Shown: one piece after another, positions 3-41,705 of the stretch
Layout of the letters: every line of letters starts with the position of its first letter
Numbering within the stretch: position 1 is the stretch's first letter
Source: a virus
Lineage: Duplodnaviria > Heunggongvirae > Uroviricota > Caudoviricetes
Strand: one strand, 5' to 3'
Length of the DNA: 64,000 nucleotides
IMG/VR virus record: IMGVR_UViG_3300036801_000212
Location: 1 to 64,000 of that record
Program-made: the position numbers and the translations under genes
Notes under the pieces: model-generated
The model's database searches: none
Told to the model about the DNA's origin: nothing
The model's input: the letters and a program-made list of their open reading frames with translations, nothing else

Positions 3-614
3 GTCACCTCAAGCGACTCGTCCACGGTGACGGCCTACGACTCGTCCACGGTGAGGGCCTACGGCTCGTCCACGGTGACGGCCTGCGGCTCGTCCACGGT
101 GACGGCCTACGACTCGTCCACGGTGAGGGCCTACGACTCGTCCACGGTGAGGGCCTACGACTCGTCCACGGTGACGGCCGGAAGTCGCACGGCGGTTCAT
201 CTGCACTCTGGAGAGGCCCGCATTGAGGGTGGCGTCCTGATCGATCACACGACCATTGATGAGTCCATCCCGTCCACTTGGGTCGACTACCACGGCGCGG
301 AGATCATCGAAGAGATCGTCACCCTTTACAAGGCGGTTCGCGCCGACCTAACGTCCGCGCACGGCACCCTGTACGAGATCGGGTCCGAAGTGTCGTGTGA
401 CGACTGGCGCGACACCGATGAGTGCGGCGGCGGATTGCATTTCTGTCCCTCCCCAGTGCAAGCATCGGCTTACGACTTGGACGCAACACGCTGGCTGGAA
501 TGCACAGTCGCGCTGTCCGATTTGCGTCCCCTGACGGATTCGTCCACTGCCAAGGCAAAAGCACCTCGAGCTCGAGTGGTGCGCGAGGTTGATATAGCCG
601 GCCGACCTATCTAG
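3..614 (+). CDS. C-terminal portion of a repeat-containing protein (5-prime truncated by window edge)
   Basis: Frame open from window start; seven tandem 8-aa repeats STV(T/R)A(Y/C)(D/G)S followed by ~140-aa Cys-containing C-terminal domain; stop at 612-614. Confidence 0.5.
   Translation, partial: VTSSDSSTVTAYDSSTVRAYGSSTVTACGSSTVTAYDSSTVRAYDSSTVRAYDSSTVTAGSRTAVHLHSGEARIEGGVLIDHTTIDESIPSTWVDYHGAEIIEEIVTLYKAVRADLTSAHGTLYEIGSEVSCDDWRDTDECGGGLHFCPSPVQASAYDLDATRWLECTVALSDLRPLTDSSTAKAKAPRARVVREVDIAGRPI
16..183 (+). repeat. 24-bp tandem repeat x7 (gactcgtccacggtgacggcctac and variants) inside coding sequence
   Basis: Direct reading of sequence; unit repeated head-to-tail with 1-3 substitutions per copy. 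Confidence 0.85.
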
Positions 615-633: not shown

Positions 634-951
634 GTGTCCGAGTACGAACTAATGTTGCGTGCGCTAGCTAATCATATATGCATGTTCGGTACACCTTCAG
701 ATCATTGTGGTGCGCCGGCGGATATCCATGCGAAATTCCACGAGAACAAGGAGATCATGATCTGCCAGGATCATTTGCTTGACCTCATGTTCCACGGCTT
801 CCGGGATGCACATCCAGTACAAGAATCATGTGGCATGGCTGGGATGGGTTGGTGGCCCTCCTGTGGACATGGTCCCGGGTATTGCTACAACCTTCTGAGT
901 CTCCCCTCCTTGGGTTCACGTATTCTGGCGTTGGAGTCTGACTGTGGGTGA
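634..951 (+). CDS. hypothetical protein (Cys/His-rich, lower GC than neighbours)
   Basis: ORF with GTG start; GTGGGTGA overlap with downstream ligase gene. Confidence 0.35.
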   Translation: MSEYELMLRALANHICMFGTPSDHCGAPADIHAKFHENKEIMICQDHLLDLMFHGFRDAHPVQESCGMAGMGWWPSCGHGPGYCYNLLSLPSLGSRILALESDCG

Positions 952-2044
952 TGTTTACTTGAGTGATCTGTTCGCTGAGGGTGACCTCCAGAAGGCTATC
1001 GACGACGGATATGTGCGGACCCAGACGCATCCCACGCTCCCCTATGTGATCTTCAACTACACGGAATTGGCCCAGTTCGCGCGGCACTGGACTCCGGTGA
1101 CTCGCCAGTGTCGTGGCCTGATCGTGAACGTCAGCTCCCGCGAGGTCTTGGCACGACCGTTCCCCAAAGTCCATAACTACAATGAGCCCGATGCACCCAA
1201 GATTGCATTAGACGAGCCGATTGTCGCCACGGACAAAGTGGACGGCTCGCTAGGGATTTCCTATCCGATCGGCGATGGTGAATACGCGATCGCCACTCGT
1301 GGTTCATTCGCCTCTGACCAGGCGACACACGCCACTGAAGTTTGGCGTAGTCGATATCGCGATCGCACCTCCATTCCCGATGGAGTCACGGCACTGTGGG
1401 AAATATTGTTCCCATCCAACAGAATCGTAATCGACTACGGTTCCACTGATGACATCATTCTCCTCGGCGGGATTTGTGTTGCATCTGGGGACTTCATTTC
1501 GGCGGACGATCTTTCGGAAATGATGTCCTGGTTCGGTCCTATCGCTCAGACGTTCCCCTTCAAGACGTTCGGTGAAATGCTCGCCGCGCCATCAAGGGAG
1601 AATAGGGAAGGATTCGTAGTCCGCTCTATTCCAACCGGTGCGACCGTCAAGTTTAAATACGAAGATTATGTCGCCTTGCATAAGCTTATCTTCGGGATGA
1701 ACGAACGCGTCGTCTGGGAACACCTCGGCGAAGGCAGGCCACTTCAAGAGCTCATCGAACCGCTCCCCGATGAATTTCACGCATGGTTGATGAGGGTCGC
1801 GGACCGCCTCTACGCCGAGGAGGCGCAAGCTGTGACCGCGGTAGAGCATGCCTACGACGAGCTCCTCGCCTCCCTCCCGCAGAACTGGACACGCAAGGAC
1901 TACGCCTTGGCTGCGATGCGATATGACGTGCTGTGGCCGTACCTGTTCAACCTTTTGGACGGGAAAGACCCACGTCCGGGGATTTGGAAGACGCTTCGTC
2001 CATCTGGTGCGGTGACCATGTCTTCTACCGAGGAGTCAGCGTGA
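944..2044 (+). CDS. ATP-dependent RNA ligase, Rnl1 (T4 RnlA)-like
   Basis: Nucleotidyltransferase motif I KVDGSLG (lysine adenylation), motif IV EGFVVRS, motif V VKFKYEDY; N-terminal VIFNYTE...QCRGLIV resembles T4 Rnl1 IFSYNYAS...ECRGIMF. Confidence 0.8.
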   Translation: MGDVYLSDLFAEGDLQKAIDDGYVRTQTHPTLPYVIFNYTELAQFARHWTPVTRQCRGLIVNVSSREVLARPFPKVHNYNEPDAPKIALDEPIVATDKVDGSLGISYPIGDGEYAIATRGSFASDQATHATEVWRSRYRDRTSIPDGVTALWEILFPSNRIVIDYGSTDDIILLGGICVASGDFISADDLSEMMSWFGPIAQTFPFKTFGEMLAAPSRENREGFVVRSIPTGATVKFKYEDYVALHKLIFGMNERVVWEHLGEGRPLQELIEPLPDEFHAWLMRVADRLYAEEAQAVTAVEHAYDELLASLPQNWTRKDYALAAMRYDVLWPYLFNLLDGKDPRPGIWKTLRPSGAVTMSSTEESA

Positions 2045-2967
2045 TCGGGAAACTGACAATCACCAGAGGTCTGTCCGGTAGCGGGAAGACCACCATCGCA
2101 CGGGAGATGGTTGACTCCCGTCCAACTGGGGAGATCGTTCGTCTCAATCGTGACGACCTCCGCGCGATGCTTCTACCTTCCTATTACCGCCAACCCGAGT
2201 ACCGTCCCGAACAGATCGTCACCCGAATTCAGCACGGTCCGATCACCGCGCTCCTCACTGAGGGAGTTGATGTTATTGTCGACGATACCAATCTTCGACT
2301 CCGCACGGTACGAGAATTAGCACAGCTCGCGGAACGTGCCAATGCTGAGTGGGAATGCATGGACACTTGTCTTGCGGTCCCGCTAGAGGAGTGTATCCGA
2401 AGGGATACCGGGAGGGAGAAGCCTGTAGGTGAGGATCTGATCCGCCGGCAGTGGCGGAAGTATCTGTCTCACGGGCGGACGCTCGAGGTGCCGGTGTTGG
2501 ATGCACCGGTGGTGGGGAAGCCGTACACAGCACCAGAAGGTGGGCAGCTGGCGATTATCGTGGATATAGACGGTACAGTTGCAATCTGCGGTGACCGTGA
2601 TATCTACGATGGCTCTCGTGCTCACCTGGATACGCCGAACGTTCCTGTTGTCAATGCCGTCTTTAGGGAGTGGGAAGATGGCTATCACATCATATTCTGC
2701 TCCGGCCGGGATGAGCAGTTCCGCAATGTCACTGACAAATGGATTCGGGACAACATTTTCCCGGACATAGAGTTCCCGTGCTTTGATCTATTCATGAGGC
2801 CGGCGGGAGATCGTCGCAAAGATTCCGTAGTCAAAAGTGAGCTGTTCGACCAATACATCCGCCACACGTACGATGTGGAACGAATTTACGACGACCGTGC
2901 GTCCGTCTGTAAAATGTGGAGGTCGCTCGGTCTCACTGTCCTGCAATGTGACGAAGGGAACTTCTAA
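2041..2967 (+). CDS. pnk: polynucleotide kinase-phosphatase (Pnkp): N-terminal P-loop 5-prime kinase + C-terminal HAD 3-prime phosphatase
   Basis: GTG start overlapping upstream stop (GTGA); Walker A GLSGSGKTT; HAD motif I DIDGTVA and downstream D-rich motifs; same architecture as T4/mycobacteriophage Pnkp. Confidence 0.85.
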   Translation: MIGKLTITRGLSGSGKTTIAREMVDSRPTGEIVRLNRDDLRAMLLPSYYRQPEYRPEQIVTRIQHGPITALLTEGVDVIVDDTNLRLRTVRELAQLAERANAEWECMDTCLAVPLEECIRRDTGREKPVGEDLIRRQWRKYLSHGRTLEVPVLDAPVVGKPYTAPEGGQLAIIVDIDGTVAICGDRDIYDGSRAHLDTPNVPVVNAVFREWEDGYHIIFCSGRDEQFRNVTDKWIRDNIFPDIEFPCFDLFMRPAGDRRKDSVVKSELFDQYIRHTYDVERIYDDRASVCKMWRSLGLTVLQCDEGNF

Positions 2968-3054
2968 ATGAACACCAATCCCCATTGTCCCGATTGCGGC
3001 GGAGTAGGTTCTGAAAATTGCGTGCGCTGTAAGCATGCTGGAGGTCAATAACAA

Positions 3055-4137
3055 GTGAGCACCTTTAAGGTCACGATCGAGAGACTAACTGTGACACCAC
3101 ATCCGAATGCGGATCGTCTAGAGCTAGCGCAGGTAGGTCTCTACCGCGCCGTGGTTCCCAAGGGGGAGTACGAAACCGGCGATTGCGCGATCTATATCCC
3201 CGAGGCGGCGATTCTCCCCGATGACTTGATCGAAGAACTCGGCCTCACAGGAAAGCTCGCCGGCAAGGAGAAGAACCGAGTCAAGGCGGTACGTCTTCGG
3301 GGCGAGCTGAGTCAGGGGATCGTGTGTCAGCCCGCGAAGTTCTCCGACTGGGAATACGACCTCATGGAGAGCAGCGGGATCGACTTCGCACCCGAGCTCG
3401 GCATCACAAAGTGGGTCCCCGAGATTCCCACTCACATGTCCGGGAAGGTCATCCCCGCTCCTGACCTCATCCGGTGGGTAGATATCGAGAACCTCAAAAG
3501 ATACCCAGACATTTTCTCCCCGGGGGAAATGATTACAGCGAGTGAGAAGGTGCACGATTCTGCCTGTCTAACGACGTACCACGTTGACTCAGATACGCTT
3601 TATGTCACGAGCAAAGGCTATGGCGAAAAGAACCTCGCATTAGAAGAAAACGGCGCAAACATCTACTGGCGTGCCGTGGAGAAATTCGAACTCAAGAAGA
3701 ACTTACAGCTGATGGCCGTCGGGTTGGACGCAGTCTCGGTGGCGATCTTCGGTGGGGTCTACGGTCAAGGTGTGCAAGACTTGCACTACGGAAAGTCGGC
3801 TCGTCACAACGACACATTAGGTTACGTAGCTTTCGACGTTGCCTGGGTGAGTCGGGTGACGGGAAAAACTTGGATGAACCCCACAGACTTCGCTCAGGTG
3901 ATGACAGGATTCCACATTCCCACCGCCCCGATTCTCTACGAAGGTCCGTTCGACCTCGAGAAGCTCACCAAGGTTGCTTCCGGACCGACCGTCCTAGGAA
4001 ATGGTGTACACATCAGGGAAGGAATTGTCATCCGTCCACAAGAGGAAAGTCACAGTGACATCCTCGGGGGAAGAAAGATCGCGAAACTCGTCTCCGATGA
4101 GTATGTGCTGCGCAAGGATGGAACGGAGTTTGAGTAA
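3055..4137 (+). CDS. RNA ligase with N-terminal OB/tRNA-binding-like domain and C-terminal nucleotidyltransferase domain (Rnl5/DraRnl-like architecture)
   Basis: N-terminus HPNADRLELAQVG...GDCAIYIPEAAILP resembles Trbp111/PheT-type OB tRNA-binding fold; C-terminal motifs EKVHDSA (motif I, Rnl2-like KIHGTN variant), EGIVIRP (motif IV), RKIAKLVS (motif V). Confidence 0.6.
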   Translation: MSTFKVTIERLTVTPHPNADRLELAQVGLYRAVVPKGEYETGDCAIYIPEAAILPDDLIEELGLTGKLAGKEKNRVKAVRLRGELSQGIVCQPAKFSDWEYDLMESSGIDFAPELGITKWVPEIPTHMSGKVIPAPDLIRWVDIENLKRYPDIFSPGEMITASEKVHDSACLTTYHVDSDTLYVTSKGYGEKNLALEENGANIYWRAVEKFELKKNLQLMAVGLDAVSVAIFGGVYGQGVQDLHYGKSARHNDTLGYVAFDVAWVSRVTGKTWMNPTDFAQVMTGFHIPTAPILYEGPFDLEKLTKVASGPTVLGNGVHIREGIVIRPQEESHSDILGGRKIAKLVSDEYVLRKDGTEFE

Positions 4138-4525
4138 TAGCTTTCACCACGCTCAATCTTCGGCGAGGAGGTGGGGTGGTACTCCGGAAATCTATCTCCC
4201 AATCCATGAGTTCATCGACGGCAGTAAGAGAACATTCGGAGACGTCCGTCACAGAGCCCTGCTGCACAACACTTGGGGTGTGTGGGTGGCACAGGAAGTC
4301 TTCGGGAGAATCCTCCATGTTCCGTTTGAAGACTCAGAGAGATTCAAACCAATCCCCGTGAGGGAGATAGCTGAGCGTCACATCGAAGAGGATTTAGGAT
4401 TCATTCCTTCTCCTGGCGATTGGTTACAGCATATGAATGTCGTCACGTGGATGGGCGGCCGGAGGCATACGTTTATCGGCCGGGAAGAACTTCTCAACCA
4501 GATCGTCAAGGACGGTAAGAAATGA
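4118..4525 (+). CDS. hypothetical protein
   Basis: ORF; ATG at 4118 overlaps end of ligase gene by 20 nt; no recognisable motif. Confidence 0.4.
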   Translation: MERSLSNSFHHAQSSARRWGGTPEIYLPIHEFIDGSKRTFGDVRHRALLHNTWGVWVAQEVFGRILHVPFEDSERFKPIPVREIAERHIEEDLGFIPSPGDWLQHMNVVTWMGGRRHTFIGREELLNQIVKDGKK

Positions 4526-4986
4526 CTGAGGTTTGTGGTCGTCCCGTTACCGGTGAGATCAGTCGCTATGGACGCGCCCAGTGCGAGCAGTGGTCGGGCG
4601 AGAAGTTCATGGAAATGCTTGACGCCGTGCTAAATCAGCCCGGGATCGAGTCAGTTAGATGGAGTCAGGGTACGCCGAGCTGGAACGACGGTGAGCCTTG
4701 CACCTTCGGCATTAATGAGTTCCTCGCCAAGCTTGCAGACGGAGAGGAAGACGCGGGCGACAACGAGGACGGCTTCCTGGACTACTACTCCCTTGAGCAA
4801 ATGAAGGCGGGGGCTCAATCGGGTATCGATTTCACATCTCTCCACGCGGCAGGCCACGCTCTCCGCGAGCTGGCAATTAGTAGTGGCCGTTTCGAAGAAT
4901 TCCTCGAAGAATCCTTCGGGGACCCCGCTGAGATCACAGCGACTAAAGACGGCTTCCACGTCGCCGAATACAACATCTATGACTGA
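4522..4986 (+). CDS. hypothetical protein (acidic)
   Basis: ORF with ATGA overlap to upstream gene. Confidence 0.5.
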   Translation: MTEVCGRPVTGEISRYGRAQCEQWSGEKFMEMLDAVLNQPGIESVRWSQGTPSWNDGEPCTFGINEFLAKLADGEEDAGDNEDGFLDYYSLEQMKAGAQSGIDFTSLHAAGHALRELAISSGRFEEFLEESFGDPAEITATKDGFHVAEYNIYD

Positions 4987-5143
4987 AACGAGGAATCTCC
5001 CCCGAGGGGTGGAGCGTCGTCACAAAAGATTCCGTGCACGAATCTGGATTGAGAACCGTCAGATCAACATCGGAACCTACGACACGCCAGAAGAAGCACA
5101 CGAAGCGTACAAATCTCGACACGAGGCGTGGCATGGAAGCTGA
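4979..5143 (+). CDS. AP2-domain DNA-binding protein (small)
   Basis: RGVERRHKRFRARIWIENRQINIGTYDTPEEAHEAYKSRHEAW matches AP2/ERF-like domain pattern common in phage HNH-associated proteins; ATGACTGA overlap. Confidence 0.55.
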   Translation: MTETRNLPRGVERRHKRFRARIWIENRQINIGTYDTPEEAHEAYKSRHEAWHGS

Positions 5144-5393
5144 AGGTACATTCTTGGTCCCAGTCCGTATCTATTCTTGCGGGAACACGAGATGCCAGAA
5201 CTTCGGTCCCGACCTCGAACATCAGGTATGGCCACATCGCAGGGGTAGTCAATTTGTATTCGAAGACCACAAGTCTTGCGCGTGTGGGAAGGTGTTCACT
5301 CTCTATCAGACGAAGGAAATCGAACCTTCCGGCGCCTGGGTTCCGGGGGTTCATGAGGACAACCCGAGGATTGATTTTTTGGGGAAGTCATGA
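5133..5393 (+). CDS. hypothetical protein with Cys cluster (possible Zn-binding)
   Basis: ATG overlapping upstream stop; C..C..C.C pattern. Confidence 0.4.
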   Translation: MEAEGTFLVPVRIYSCGNTRCQNFGPDLEHQVWPHRRGSQFVFEDHKSCACGKVFTLYQTKEIEPSGAWVPGVHEDNPRIDFLGKS

Positions 5394-6178
5394 CTGAGCC
5401 GGAGAAGGTTCTCATCGCCGGCGACTGGCACGGCAACGGCGCGTTCGCTACGGCAGTCATCGATCACCTCCCGGACTTTATACCCAATGGTCCACGCATC
5501 CTTCTGCATGTCGGAGACTTCGGAATCTGGCCGGGAGATGCTTTCTATCTGTCCGCAGTGGATGAAGCACTTGAAGAGGTTGATGCTGAGTTGTGGTTTG
5601 TGGACGGCAACCACGAATGTCACGATCGACTCACGGGGCTGATGCAGCAACGCGAACTGGAAGACCGCCGCACCTCTCCCTACAGAATCAACAGTCGAAT
5701 CAAGTGGCTACCTCGCGGCTATCGCTGGCAGTGGCATGGTCGGACATGGTTGGCGCTGGGTGGGGCCACCTCCGTCGACCGTCCCATCCGAACCCCCGGT
5801 AGAGACTGGTGGCCGCAGGAGTCCATCTCGTACGACGACTTCCTCGCCGCGACTTCTCGAGGAAAAGCGGACGTCATGGTTGCACACGACTGTCCAAAAG
5901 GTGTTCCACTTCCGCTGCCCACGTTGATCCCGCACTGGTGGGAACTTGGCCCAGCGGAGGAGCACAGAAGAGTGCTTCGCCAGGTCGCATTGGAGGTCAA
6001 ACCCGAATGGCTGTTCCACGGTCACTATCACCTCTACCACGACACCACCGTAGATTTAGGTTGGGGTGACATGCGCACCATCGGTCTGGACTGTGACGGC
6101 GCATACACGGGACAAAGTGTCCTATGCGACGTCCGCACGATGGAAATCACAAACCCATGGCAGGAGGGTCATGGCTGA
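5390..6178 (+). CDS. metallophosphoesterase (calcineurin-like Ser/Thr phosphatase family)
   Basis: Motifs GDWHGN, HVGDFG, VDGNHE, AHDCP, HGHYH in canonical order. Confidence 0.85.
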   Translation: MTEPEKVLIAGDWHGNGAFATAVIDHLPDFIPNGPRILLHVGDFGIWPGDAFYLSAVDEALEEVDAELWFVDGNHECHDRLTGLMQQRELEDRRTSPYRINSRIKWLPRGYRWQWHGRTWLALGGATSVDRPIRTPGRDWWPQESISYDDFLAATSRGKADVMVAHDCPKGVPLPLPTLIPHWWELGPAEEHRRVLRQVALEVKPEWLFHGHYHLYHDTTVDLGWGDMRTIGLDCDGAYTGQSVLCDVRTMEITNPWQEGHG

Positions 6179-7292: not shown

Positions 7293-7582
7293 TTGGAACG
7301 TCGGTTGTCGCTGAGCTGCGTAATCGAATGACGGGTAGGGACAACTTTGACCGAGTATGTGTCCCGGTGGGACAGTTACGGGAGTTGATTTCGGACTACG
7401 ACCGAAGTAGGCATGACGTTCAGTGGTTGCGATCGGAACTAATGTTACCGACTGAAGCTTTAGTGTTGATCGTCGAGATGATTACTGGACCACCCCATCT
7501 AATGATCTCCGAACATATCGATTGGGAAAAGTCTCTCTGGTCGCGTGCCGACGATATTGCAAGACGCGCGGCGCAGGCATGA
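7289..7582 (+). CDS. hypothetical protein
   Basis: ATGA overlap; ORF. Confidence 0.45.
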   Translation: MIGTSVVAELRNRMTGRDNFDRVCVPVGQLRELISDYDRSRHDVQWLRSELMLPTEALVLIVEMITGPPHLMISEHIDWEKSLWSRADDIARRAAQA

Positions 7583-10414: not shown

Positions 10415-10709
10415 GTGTGGTACCGCCTACTGCATGGCCGGTTGGGCTGTGGCTCTAGCCGGTTACGAGTTTTGCTGGCGCAGCGACGGCACCACAAGCA
10501 GTGTGATAACTGAACGCACCGCGACTTCGACCCACTGTGAACTCATCGAGGAGATCGCGACAGCTGTTCTAGGTCTTGACTTCCGCGACGCCGATGACCT
10601 TTTTCATTCACTCAACACCGTCGATGACCTGGAACTCATGGTGAAGAATCTCTCGAACGGAGAGCCGATCCGTGATGGCGTTCCGATGCGCATTGAAAAG
10701 GGTCTCTGA
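10323..10709 (+). CDS. tandem paralog family A, copy 1 (uncharacterised ~120-aa protein)
   Basis: Consensus N-term MAN[IVL]EK[LC]E.VL..I+.HPE.H[DN]Q..W......CGT..C.AGW and C-term DDLE[LR].VK[ND]I[SA]N shared by six consecutive genes. Confidence 0.6.
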   Translation: MANIEKLEAVLDHIKMHPESHNQEVWAEKTECGTAYCMAGWAVALAGYEFCWRSDGTTSSVITERTATSTHCELIEEIATAVLGLDFRDADDLFHSLNTVDDLELMVKNLSNGEPIRDGVPMRIEKGL

Positions 10710-38700: not shown

Positions 38701-38772
38701 AGAGCGGGATGGCGCAGTAGTAGCGCGTTGGGCTCATATCCCAAAGGTCGTGGGTGCGACTCCCACTCCCGC
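38701..38772 (+). tRNA. tRNA-Met (anticodon CAU; could alternatively be lysidine tRNA-Ile)
   Basis: Cloverleaf folded by hand: acceptor AGCGGGA/TCCCGCC (1:72 A-C mismatch), D-stem GCGC/GCGC, anticodon stem TTGGG/CCCAA loop CTCATAT, T-arm GTGGG-TGCGACT-CCCAC; no encoded CCA. Confidence 0.7.
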
Positions 38773-38824
38773 CACGTGTCACGCCCGGACAATGGGTTCC
38801 TCACGGTTCGCCCGTCCGGGTTAT

Positions 38825-38899
38825 CTGCTCGTGGGCCAATCTGGTTAAGCCACTGCTTTTGGGAAGCAGACAGTGGAAGTTCGAATCTTCCCGAGCAGA
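38825..38899 (+). tRNA. tRNA-Pro (anticodon UGG)
   Basis: Acceptor CTGCTCG/CGAGCAG perfect, anticodon stem CTGCT/AGCAG loop TTTGGGA, T-arm GGAAG-TTCGAAT-CTTCC; discriminator A, no encoded CCA. Confidence 0.75.
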
Positions 38900-38923
38900 C
38901 GCGATTTGAGGAGGTGAGCGCCG

Positions 38924-40408: not shown

Positions 40409-41705
40409 CCCCCGGATTTATCCGTGGGGAGGAATCGGAGTGCCGTGCCTTACTCATGTCGTGCCCTCTGGTAAAGTGGATGTCGTGAGGACGGCGTACA
40501 AGGTTCGTGCCTACCCCGACACTGAGCAGGCGACGCTGCTGCGTCGCACCTTCGGGTGTGTGCGCCTGGTATGGAACAAGACCCTCGCCGATCGGCAATG
40601 CCGCTACACCGTCGAGCAGCGCAGCACTCCGTATAAGGAGACTGACGCCGCCCTCGCTGCGTGGAAACACACCGACGAGCTGGCGTTTCTGTCCGAGGTG
40701 TCCTCGGTTCCGTTGCAGCAGACGTTGCGGCATCAGCACACCGCGTTCCAAAACTTCTTCGCCAAACGAGGCCGCTACCCGAAGTTCAAGTCCCGCAACT
40801 CGCGCCAGTCCGCGCACTACACCCGGTCGGCGTTCCGCATCAAACCCGATGGATTGTGGCTGGCTAAAACCACTGCGCCGTTGAAAGTGGCGTGGTCGTG
40901 GCCCGACATTGACATGACCGGACTCGACCCGACGATGGTCATCGTCAGCGTCGAACCCGACGGCCGCTGGTACGTCACCTTCGCCGTGGACGTTTCCGCT
41001 CCGGCTCCGCTGCCCGCCGTCGGCGAGACGGTCGGAGTCGACGTCGGGTTGAAGGACTTCGCTGTCCTGTCCACCGGGGAGCGCATCGCCAACCCACGGC
41101 ATCTAGCCAAGCGCGCCCGGAACTTGGCCCGCTACCAGCGACGCATGACCCGCTGTAAGCGTGGCTCCGCGAACCGAGCCAAGGCCAAACTGAAGGTCGC
41201 TCGGGCACACTCGAAGGTCCGCGCTGCACGAAACGACTTCCTGCACAAGACCAGCACCACATTGGTCCGCCGGTTCGATCGGGTCGGCATCGAAGATCTG
41301 AACGTATCCGGCATGGTCCGCGATCACCCGCTCGCCAAGGCGATTTCCGACGTTGGGTGGGGCGAGTTCCGGTCCATGCTCGAATACAAGGCGCAACGCG
41401 CCGGACGTCAGATGATCGCCATCGACCGCTGGTACCCGTCGAGCAAGACATGCAGTTCGTGTGGCCACCTGCTGACCTTCCTTTCCCTTGGTACGCGTCA
41501 GTGGACGTGTCCCGGATGCGGCACCCGACATGATCGGGACTTGAACGCCGCGAAGAACATCGATACGGCGGCCGGGCTGGTCGCTGCTGCCTCCGGAGGG
41601 CCGGTGAGACCTGTGCAGGCAACTGCTGGGCACGGCCCAGCGAAAGAGGAACCCCGACTCGTGAGGGTTGGAATCCCCCGCCTTTAGGCGTGGGGAGGAA
41701 GTCAA
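40409..41705 (+). mobile_element. second IS200/IS605-family tnpB-only element, ~1.3 kb
   Basis: Left-end hairpin CCCCCGGATTTATCCGTGGGG identical to first element; right-end hairpin CCCCCGCCTTTAGGCGTGGGG followed by AGGAAGTCAA. Confidence 0.65.
40485..41687 (+). CDS. tnpB: TnpB (diverged paralog of 24783..25925)
   Basis: RTAYKVRAYPDTEQATLLRRTFGCVRLVWNKTL; RuvC-like motifs; CSSCG...CPGCG Zn finger; NAAKNI. Confidence 0.85.
   Translation: MRTAYKVRAYPDTEQATLLRRTFGCVRLVWNKTLADRQCRYTVEQRSTPYKETDAALAAWKHTDELAFLSEVSSVPLQQTLRHQHTAFQNFFAKRGRYPKFKSRNSRQSAHYTRSAFRIKPDGLWLAKTTAPLKVAWSWPDIDMTGLDPTMVIVSVEPDGRWYVTFAVDVSAPAPLPAVGETVGVDVGLKDFAVLSTGERIANPRHLAKRARNLARYQRRMTRCKRGSANRAKAKLKVARAHSKVRAARNDFLHKTSTTLVRRFDRVGIEDLNVSGMVRDHPLAKAISDVGWGEFRSMLEYKAQRAGRQMIAIDRWYPSSKTCSSCGHLLTFLSLGTRQWTCPGCGTRHDRDLNAAKNIDTAAGLVAAASGGPVRPVQATAGHGPAKEEPRLVRVGIPRL

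Follow-up and report, generated by a model that had tools for sequence, protein, structure and literature searches.

A candidate RNA-repair operon of an uncultivated actinophage combines an Rnl1-type ligase and Pnkp with a DraRnl/Rnl5-family protein that is probably ligase-dead

How many of the RNA ligases that a phage encodes side by side can actually seal RNA? The question is raised by a stretch of 64,000 nucleotides (hereafter the window), which spans positions 1–64,000 of the IMG/VR virus record IMGVR_UViG_3300036801_000212 (Caudoviricetes). On its + strand, positions 944–4137 hold three large co-directional open reading frames (ORFs), which encode an Rnl1-type RNA ligase (ORF1), a bifunctional polynucleotide 5'-kinase/3'-phosphatase (Pnkp), and a protein of the DraRnl/Rnl5 type (ORF3). 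A first-pass annotation had described the same three ORFs, all of which are present where it placed them, and had read them as two active ligases, for two classes of RNA break, on either side of a healing enzyme. Profile, sequence, and fold matches bear out its family assignments and domain order for all three proteins, and the motifs that it named are found (KVDGS at residues 98–102 and EGFVVRS at residues 222–228 of ORF1, HPNADRL at residues 16–22 of ORF3). The notion of two active ligases is not supported, as ORF3 is without the invariant glycine of motif I and the invariant glutamate of motif III. Because each residue is essential in the orthologs DraRnl and/or NgrRnl, ORF3 is predicted to be incapable of self-adenylylation and nick sealing. 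It probably does not work as a ligase and is most likely ligase-dead, which would leave the cassette with a single functional sealing enzyme instead of two.

ORF3 consists of an N-terminal OB domain (residues 1 to ∼91), a variable linker (residues ∼92–125), and a nucleotidyltransferase (NTase) domain (residues ∼126–360), with no C-terminal appendage. Pfam places PF21189 (PHA02142 OB) at residues 6–90 (E = 4e-12) and PF09414 (RNA_ligase) at residues 161–346 (E = 3.5e-17). The equivalog profile TIGR02306 (RNA_lig_DRB0094), which is built on DraRnl, matches with 329.5 bits (E = 1.9e-98; cutoff, 151.15), and the search for an NTase fold at 3055–4137 that the first-pass annotation had suggested thus finds profile support. 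ORF3 aligns end to end with the Naegleria gruberi RNA ligase (NgrRnl; E = 1e-17). Its AlphaFold model, with a predicted local distance difference test score (pLDDT) of 86.9, matches the NgrRnl structures with template modeling (TM) scores of 0.77–0.84, well ahead of T4 Rnl2.

With DraRnl (Deinococcus radiodurans DRB0094) and NgrRnl, ORF3 shares the two-domain architecture, the fold (TM ∼0.8), the lysine nucleophile, the histidine of KxHG, and motifs Ia, IIIa, IV, and V. In contrast to both, ORF3 carries an aspartate in place of the motif I glycine (G168D; KVHD replaces KxHG) and a glycine in place of the motif III glutamate (E234G; FGG replaces FGE). The underlying codon changes are GG[CG]→GAT at position 168, where intact relatives use GGC or GGG, and GAG→GGG at position 234. 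The remainder of the active site is kept, namely K165, H167, S186-K187 of motif Ia, F260-D261 of motif IIIa, E322-G323 of motif IV, and K344 of motif V, and the contacts of the N domain (e.g. K119) are intact.

We compared ORF3 with its 120 best homologs (52–96% identity) and with a diverse set of 150 family members (35–62% identical), which came from exhaustively searching 1.84 billion cluster representatives (50% clustering). Whereas the motifs of ORF3 and of its 96% relative are S-E-K-V-H-D and F-G-G-V-Y-G, all of the other close homologs (119/119) read [TS]-E-K-[ILV]-H-G and F-G-E. K165, H167, and G168 are each present in 150 of the 150 diverse members, and E234 is present in all 145 sequences of that set that cover the column. 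Across both sets, ORF3 excepted, G168 is found in 269/269 homologs and E234 in 264/264 that cover it. An independent occurrence of an HD variant of motif I was sought with the back-translated pattern A-[ST]-E-K-x-H-D-[ST]-[AC]-C-L in viral, genome, and metagenome collections, which returned 0, 1, and 2 matches, respectively, all of them chance matches in unrelated sequence.

Both positions have been mutated in orthologs. In DraRnl, whose motif I reads 163-TEKLHG-168, the G168A variant retains <1% of the nick-sealing activity, and the variants E230A, E230D, and E230Q retain ≤1% (PMC1807946). Both G168 and E230 of DraRnl are needed for adenylylation of the ligase (step 1) as well as for forming the phosphodiester at a nick that is pre-adenylylated (step 3), and a strict distance requirement was inferred by the authors for the glutamate carboxylate (PMC1807946). 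The corresponding E227A variant of NgrRnl fails to take up the catalytic Mn2+, loses the contact to the ribose 2'-OH, and is inert despite the metal-binding Asp172 in motif I (PMC7261155). ORF3 would descend from a genuine nick-sealing ligase of the DraRnl/Rnl5 type. The glutamate that it lost (E234) would normally hold the catalytic metal and the ribose 2'-OH, and the lost glycine (G168) would be required for adenylylation and phosphodiester formation.

The two substitutions are not a sequencing error, because both occur in all nine distinct protein variants of the 90%-identity cluster that contains ORF3 (JGI and Logan assemblies, contigs of up to 120 kb) and the DNA of the gene was read in seven assemblies (the window and contigs L001 and L012–L016) from at least six different samples. 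The order Rnl1–Pnkp–ORF3 is the same in the five assemblies that extend upstream (the window, L001, L012, L015, and L016). None of the seven copies contains a frameshift, a stop, or a truncation, and residues 200–331 of the NTase domain are identical in 9/9 variants. Of 15 nonsynonymous events among the seven copies, nine fall into the OB–NTase linker (residues 92–125), which varies among active family members too.

ORF1 is an intact Rnl1-type ligase and is predicted to be active. It matches Pfam family PF09511 (RNA_lig_T4_1; E = 2.8e-10, 40.9 bits; gathering score, 28.3), phrog_562 (T4 gp63-type RNA ligase; E = 4e-66), and, with residues 33–249, the crystal-structure sequence of T4 Rnl1 (PDB code 2c5u; E = 8e-16). 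In an alignment with residues 1–254 of T4 Rnl1 and 119 homologs, ORF1 keeps R57, K75, K98, D100, G101, E153, E222, G223, K236, and K238, which correspond, in this order, to R54, K75, K99, D101, G102, E159, E227, G228, K240, and K242 of T4 Rnl1. All 12 positions that are essential in T4 Rnl1 are either kept or occupied by a residue that occurs among the 119 homologs; the equivalent of K119 is arginine in the whole ORF1 clade, and the equivalent of F77 is histidine in ORF1 and 16 homologs. ORF1 scores below the cutoff of the T4 RnlA equivalog (TIGR02308; 58.2 versus 242.25 bits, with residues 34–248 covered). In its AlphaFold 2 model (pLDDT 94.8), the C domain (residues 240–350) is all-helical. 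T4 Rnl1 is the top Foldseek match of this model (E = 3.6e-17), followed by fungal Trl1 ligase domains, and the full-length alignment to T4 Rnl1 has a TM score of 0.57 at a root-mean-square deviation of 14 Å.

Judged from its sequence, Pnkp is of the T4 type with intact catalytic residues. An N-terminal P-loop kinase domain (AAA_33, PF13671; E = 4.6e-20) is followed by a C-terminal phosphatase domain (HAD_PNKP, PF25109; E = 1.6e-44), and the protein matches phrog_505 (E = 2e-83) and, over its full length, bacterial Pnkp1 (PDB code 4xrp; E = 1e-33) and T4 Pnkp (PDB code 1ltq; E = 1.7e-28). All catalytic motifs (GxxGxGK[ST], RDD of the general-base region, DxDGT with the nucleophile, SGR, and DD(R)) were located and align with their counterparts in Pnkp1. 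The frame is open from position 1933; the start was assigned to GTG 2041 because of the position of the P-loop and of homologous contigs, in which the Pnkp gene begins 4 nucleotides before the stop of ORF1. With the catalytic residues of ORF1 and Pnkp all kept, the healing-and-sealing pair seen here by the first-pass annotation is supported. As a separate observation, the HAD-phosphatase half of Pnkp (residues ∼163–305), together with the mini-ORF behind it (Table 1), forms a recombinant segment (compare L001 1802–2722). The allele of the window and L016 shares ∼77% protein identity with that of L001, L012, and L015, whereas the flanking Rnl1 and ORF3 are 96–99% identical, a pattern that points to mosaic exchange inside one gene.

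In the mechanism that we propose, the HAD domain of Pnkp would generate a 3'-OH at the RNA break, its P-loop kinase would generate the 5'-phosphate, and ORF1 would reseal the break via a lysyl-AMP at K98. The genes are tightly packed. An upstream ORF (634–951) overlaps the start of ORF1, the stop of ORF1 and the start of Pnkp overlap in GTGA (2041–2044), the Pnkp stop abuts the ATG of the mini-ORF (TAAATG at 2965–2970), and the stop of ORF3 is overlapped by a gene for a DUF6915 protein. A scan of the cassette for internal promoters and terminators gave no signal above shuffled background. The closest cellular homologs of both ligases are found in Nocardia, Streptomyces, and Nonomuraea. We favor, with somewhat better than even confidence, the reading that the region is a single co-transcribed RNA-repair operon of a large uncultivated actinophage and that ORF3 within it is likely ligase-dead.

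Table 1. Coordinates of the RNA-repair cassette, its catalytic motifs, and the genes downstream
Feature	Position	Strand	Length	Matches and remarks
ORF1, Rnl1-type ATP-dependent RNA ligase, predicted active	944..2044	+	366 aa	PF09511, phrog_562, PDB 2c5u
ORF1 catalytic codons	K98 (nucleophile) 1235-1237; E153 1400-1402; E222 1607-1609; K236+K238 1649-1657			
Pnkp, bifunctional polynucleotide 5'-kinase/3'-phosphatase	2041..2967	+	308 aa	PF13671, PF25109, phrog_505
Pnkp motifs	P-loop GLSGSGKTT 2068-2094; NRDDLR 2146-2163; DIDGT 2563-2577; SGR 2701-2709; DDR 2890-2898			
Mini-ORF MNTNPHCPDCGGVGSENCVRCKHAGGQ*	2968..3051	+	27 codons	Cys4, CxxCxGxG...CxxC; fills the Pnkp-ORF3 gap (2968-3054, 87 nt)
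ORF3, DraRnl/Rnl5-family protein, predicted without self-adenylylation or nick sealing	3055..4137	+	360 aa	PF21189, PF09414, TIGR02306
ORF3 motif I, K165-V-H167-D168	3547..3558	+		D168 codon GAT 3556-3558; family K-x-H-G
ORF3 motif III, position 234 = Gly (GGG)	3754..3756	+		Family Glu (GAG); single A-to-G transition
DUF6915 protein	4118..4525	+	135 aa	PF21866 4e-38, phrog_8143
phrog_9564 protein	4522-4986	+	154 aa	Downstream of DUF6915
Calcineurin-type metallophosphoesterase	5390..6178	+	262 aa	PF00149 3.8e-9, phrog_1649 9.5e-48

Phage T4 has two ligase families together with Pnkp (Rnl1, Rnl2, and Pnkp), and its Rnl1 and Pnkp are an experimentally established pair against PrrC. The T4 set (Pnkp pseT, Rnl1 gp63, and Rnl2) likewise joins an Rnl1-family ligase and a bifunctional Pnkp with a second ligase gene of a nick-sealing family, with the same presumed logic of healing and sealing nuclease-cut tRNA; given this precedent, the combination of two ligase families with Pnkp is not new in itself. 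In contrast to T4, the genes of the cassette are contiguous and overlap in one operon, and the second ligase gene, unlike that for T4 Rnl2, is of the Rnl5 type with an N-terminal OB domain and is without two essential catalytic residues. The bacterial Pnkp1–Rnl–Hen1 complex (PDB codes 4xrp and 4xru), which provides the best solved-structure match of the cassette Pnkp, also combines a T4-like Pnkp with a separately encoded ligase (PMC4411300). This ligase is Rnl4-like, corresponding to the bacterial Pnkp ligase domain, and neither Rnl1 nor Rnl5.

Among actinophages, the ORF1–Pnkp pair is ordinary and already known. Ligase–Pnkp pairs occur in Arthrobacter phage Seahorse (gp81–gp82), in the Streptomyces phages Sham and StarPlatinum, and in mycobacteriophages of Clusters E and J (e.g. 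CrystalP, Cjw1, and Omega), with Rnl1-type ligases that are 43–48% identical to ORF1 and lie next to or near Pnkp. Seahorse gp81–gp82 shows the same stop–start overlap as the cassette, whereas the Streptomyces phages have a looser pair that lies among tRNA genes. In Cluster E mycobacteriophages, the RNA ligase and Pnkp were "implicated in tRNA repair" (PMC5511906). None of the inspected neighborhoods has a DraRnl-type gene attached, unlike the cassette. Seahorse encodes, ∼3 kb upstream of its Rnl1–Pnkp pair, a second short "RNA ligase" of 202 residues (gp74; L003 592–1200), possibly a 2'-5' ligase or LigT-type protein, and adds to the actinophages in which "ligase" is annotated more than once near Pnkp.

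DraRnl homologs were noted earlier in phages of Aeromonas, Caulobacter, Mycobacterium, and Sinorhizobium (PMC4408790). In contig L011, the genes for an intact OB-ligase, Rnl1, Pnkp, and a metallophosphoesterase fall within a stretch of 7 kb, and their order is unlike that of the cassette. In L006 and L007, an intact OB-ligase is followed a few genes downstream by RtcB instead of being partnered with Rnl1–Pnkp. The OB-ligases of these three contigs are 65–68% identical to ORF3 and keep KIHG and FGE. L002, L008, L009, and L010, which also encode an intact OB-ligase, have neither Rnl1–Pnkp nor RtcB nearby. RtcB lies at 10510–11685 in L006 and at 7490–9607 in L007, where the protein has 705 residues, about twice the normal length, and may contain an intein. 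Three long proteins of the Rnl5 family, P0253 (734 residues), P0270 (772 residues), and P0395 (703 residues), match ORF3 in two stretches broken at residues 171–172; their motif I reads KxHGC, which suggests an intein directly after this catalytic motif.

Several points weigh against the reading that we favor. The inactivity of ORF3 is extrapolated from orthologs, and the identity to NgrRnl is ∼23%. With E234 a carboxylate was lost, and with D168 one was gained nearby in sequence, so that a relocated-carboxylate active site is conceivable; aspartate tolerates a left-handed turn conformation better than alanine, the residue tested in DraRnl. ORF3 departs from the family at 5 of the 111 columns conserved at ≥95% (controls, 0–6), two of the five being the catalytic positions, and Tajima relative-rate tests of ORF3 against 11 sister sequences with 6 outgroups detected no acceleration. 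Outside the linker, 5 synonymous and 6 nonsynonymous changes correspond to a ratio of nonsynonymous to synonymous polymorphism (pN/pS) of ∼0.36 (binomial p = 0.09). For ORF1, no sequence match to the tRNA-specificity C domain of T4 Rnl1 was found beyond residue 249 with either the PDB sequence or the TIGR02308 profile, and a tRNA-repair role and tRNA specificity of ORF1–Pnkp are ascribed by analogy with T4.

The OB domain of ORF3 had been likened to tRNA-binding domains in the first-pass annotation. A remote relationship is probable: hhalign aligned the N-domain profile with a segment of Escherichia coli PheT (94% probability, E = 1e-7, 76 columns), a match that serves as a lead. The N-domain profile also gives two colinear sub-threshold matches to PheRS-beta (E = 0.35–1.4; PheT residues 46–67 and 104–126). 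The Pfam family named for this likeness, tRNA_bind (PF01588; PheT B2/Trbp111 type), stays below threshold for the N domain (E = 0.098, 13.2 bits versus a gathering score of 27, residues 76–97 only) and is not listed for full-length ORF3 at E ≤ 0.1 in the Pfam scan. The likeness is shared by the Rnl5 family as a whole. The role demonstrated for the OB domain of NgrRnl is not tRNA binding but the placing of the ATP γ-phosphate and the pyrophosphate leaving group for adenylylation (PMC7261155).

What, then, is ORF3? It would be either a retained non-catalytic partner that binds RNA or nicks, or a recently inactivated relic. The former possibility, which we entertain tentatively, is that of a selectively maintained pseudoenzyme, which might assist Pnkp–Rnl1 by binding nicks, ends, or tRNA, thereby presenting substrate or protecting ends, or might act as a decoy for host factors. 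In its favor, the changes hit only the two catalytic positions and leave 106/111 conserved columns, the OB domain, and the basic surface residues in place; within the lineage, variation spares NTase residues 200–331 and concentrates in the family-variable linker; seven assemblies have an undisrupted ORF, with a Shine-Dalgarno sequence of its own; and the OB domain is probably a remote relative of tRNA-binding OB domains. The pN/pS ratio outside the linker is similar to that of the neighboring Rnl1 (0.49). However, divergence within the lineage is tiny (dS ∼0.01–0.03), the test for constraint is not significant, and a recent inactivation would leave an intact ORF too.

The latter possibility, a recently inactivated gene that is heading for loss and dispensable thanks to the adjacent Rnl1–Pnkp, is equally tentative. 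Between ORF3 and its L001 copy we counted 10 nonsynonymous and 3 synonymous changes and one 3-codon indel; the ratio of nonsynonymous to synonymous substitution rates (dN/dS) is ∼1.0, against 0.11–0.38 in the neighboring genes (Fisher p = 0.08), which would suggest relaxed selection and speaks, on very small counts, for a relic and against a maintained protein. For the whole gene, pN/pS is 0.76 and indistinguishable from neutrality, the region is highly mosaic, and close relatives with an intact OB-ligase (L002 and L006–L010) are without an adjacent Rnl1–Pnkp. On the other hand, no copy is disrupted, most of the nonsynonymous changes lie in a linker that is variable even among active members, and L011 keeps an intact OB-ligase alongside Rnl1 and Pnkp, which argues that redundancy alone does not lead to loss. 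More doubtful is the wider proposal that ORF3 is a selectively maintained pseudo-ligase that binds nicked RNA or tRNA, be it to present substrate, to shield ends, or to decoy a host nuclease or sensor, or else a relocated-carboxylate site with altered cofactor or chemistry.

It is unlikely that the cassette serves a task other than countering host tRNA nucleases, such as the processing of phage transcripts, the repair of RNA–DNA junctions in replication, or, in line with a proposal made for DraRnl, the repair of nucleic acid damage. Such a task would fit the location of the cassette in an arm for replication and nucleotide metabolism, alongside genes for methyltransferases, a replication initiator, and a clamp loader, and it would fit the sensitization of Deinococcus to radiation upon loss of DraRnl (PMC5397189). 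The lack of detectable sequence likeness between the C domain of ORF1 and that of T4 Rnl1 points the same way, as does the distance to the tRNA genes of the phage. Such genes, which the first-pass annotation had invoked as context, do exist, but the window holds only two of them, at 38.7–38.9 kb and ∼35 kb from the cassette. Against another task stands the precedent of Rnl1 and Pnkp in T4 as an anti-PrrC pair. Actinophage annotators, too, implicate Rnl1 and Pnkp in tRNA repair (PMC5511906), and the Streptomyces phages carry this pair among tRNA genes.

Least likely is that both ligases are active, with Rnl1 sealing breaks in tRNA anticodon loops, the Rnl5-type protein sealing nicks in duplex RNA, and D168 standing in for the motif III glutamate at the metal and the ribose in a compensated active site: although an acidic residue is lost and gained together in 9/9 variants, the rest of the active site and the N-domain contacts are intact, ORF3 shows no sign of general decay, classical KxDG ligases do bear a metal-binding aspartate in motif I (NgrRnl D172, PMC7261155), and L011 shows the two-ligase set to be a real arrangement, the NgrRnl aspartate fails to rescue E227A (PMC7261155), DraRnl E230D has only 1% activity in line with the strict distance and its G168A variant is dead (PMC1807946), the place of D168 is K+3 and not the K+2 of KxDG, and the Asp/Gly pair occurs in no other lineage among the 269 other homologs and in none of the pattern scans.

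The gap between Pnkp and ORF3 is filled by the mini-ORF, which ends 3 nucleotides before the start of ORF3 and holds the GGAGG (3040–3044) that is the Shine-Dalgarno sequence of ORF3. Uncalled by gene finders, it occurs in 7/7 cassette copies; its two alleles have diverged but preserve the frame and the four cysteines, and the mini-ORF is probably a real zinc-ribbon micro-gene. The DUF6915 gene lies directly downstream of the OB-ligase homolog, or one small gene on, in L008 and L012–L016, and its product shares 73% identity with the L008 copy (tblastn). It is accompanied by the phrog_9564 protein in the window, L008, L012, L013, and L016; in L014 and L015, DUF6915 is followed by the contig end, and L001 has neither. 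Both proteins may be further components of the module. Synteny with L008 upstream of the cassette, suggested by a 195-residue protein in both, was rejected, as the two proteins show no similarity by tblastn and only DUF6915 and the next gene are shared.

A metallophosphoesterase further downstream accompanies RNA-repair genes in L001 (4300–5088), L012 (5527–6315), L011 (7863–8405), and L006 (11891–12481); in L011 and L006, a Metallophos_2 gene is found next to Pnkp and close to RtcB, respectively. A PDB sequence search with the window protein matched no solved structure. A 2',3'-cyclic phosphodiesterase (CPDase) activity was reported for lambda-Pase and CthPnkp (PMC2190708), and by analogy an accessory end-healing CPDase is a possible function. 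No RtcB homolog was found in the window by tblastn, no Hen1 methyltransferase was seen in or beside the cassette (944–6178), and the PADLOC defense models matched none of six proteins of the cassette region. A megablast search with the cassette found no relative at the DNA level among deposited phages.

The rest of the window encodes, besides the replication proteins and methyltransferases mentioned above, a transposase, and the window corresponds to the early or replication arm in the genome of a large uncultivated actinophage. The two tRNA genes, tRNA-Met(CAT) and tRNA-Pro(TGG), lie at 38703–38900 (+) and are followed ∼1.5 kb on by a transposase-like gene for 415 residues (40440–41687; phrog_506, E = 9e-128), so that a mobile element appears to adjoin them. 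At the left end of the window, a gene at 27–614 (+) encodes a DUF7666 protein whose N-terminal part has short, nearly identical peptide repeats in a row (…SSTVRAYGSSTVTACGSSTVTAYDSSTVRAYDSSTV…); a matching repeat ORF on the opposite strand (9–293) is probably a repeat artifact.

Because Pnkp with an RNA ligase is the textbook phage counter to tRNA-cleaving host defenses, another case in an actinophage is ordinary. What is unusual is that the ORF3 lineage is a natural double mutant at exactly the two globally critical residues of DraRnl in a protein that is otherwise well conserved. Annotation by homology would credit this phage with two RNA ligases, as TIGR02306 is exceeded by far; since ORF3 lacks two indispensable residues, inferences such as a repair of two classes of break would be wrong, and the earlier two-ligase model is probably wrong for this lineage. 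ORF3 thus offers a clean test case for the reuse of a ligase fold as a non-catalytic RNA binder in the conflict between phage and host, and for the relocation of the motif III carboxylate. A maintained pseudo-ligase or a relocated-carboxylate site would, if true, be the first case of a functional deviant described for the Rnl5 family. More broadly, genes for OB-ligase, Rnl1, Pnkp, RtcB, and metallophosphoesterase are shuffled among the related contigs, which suggests that soil actinophages have an RNA-repair toolkit of modular make-up.

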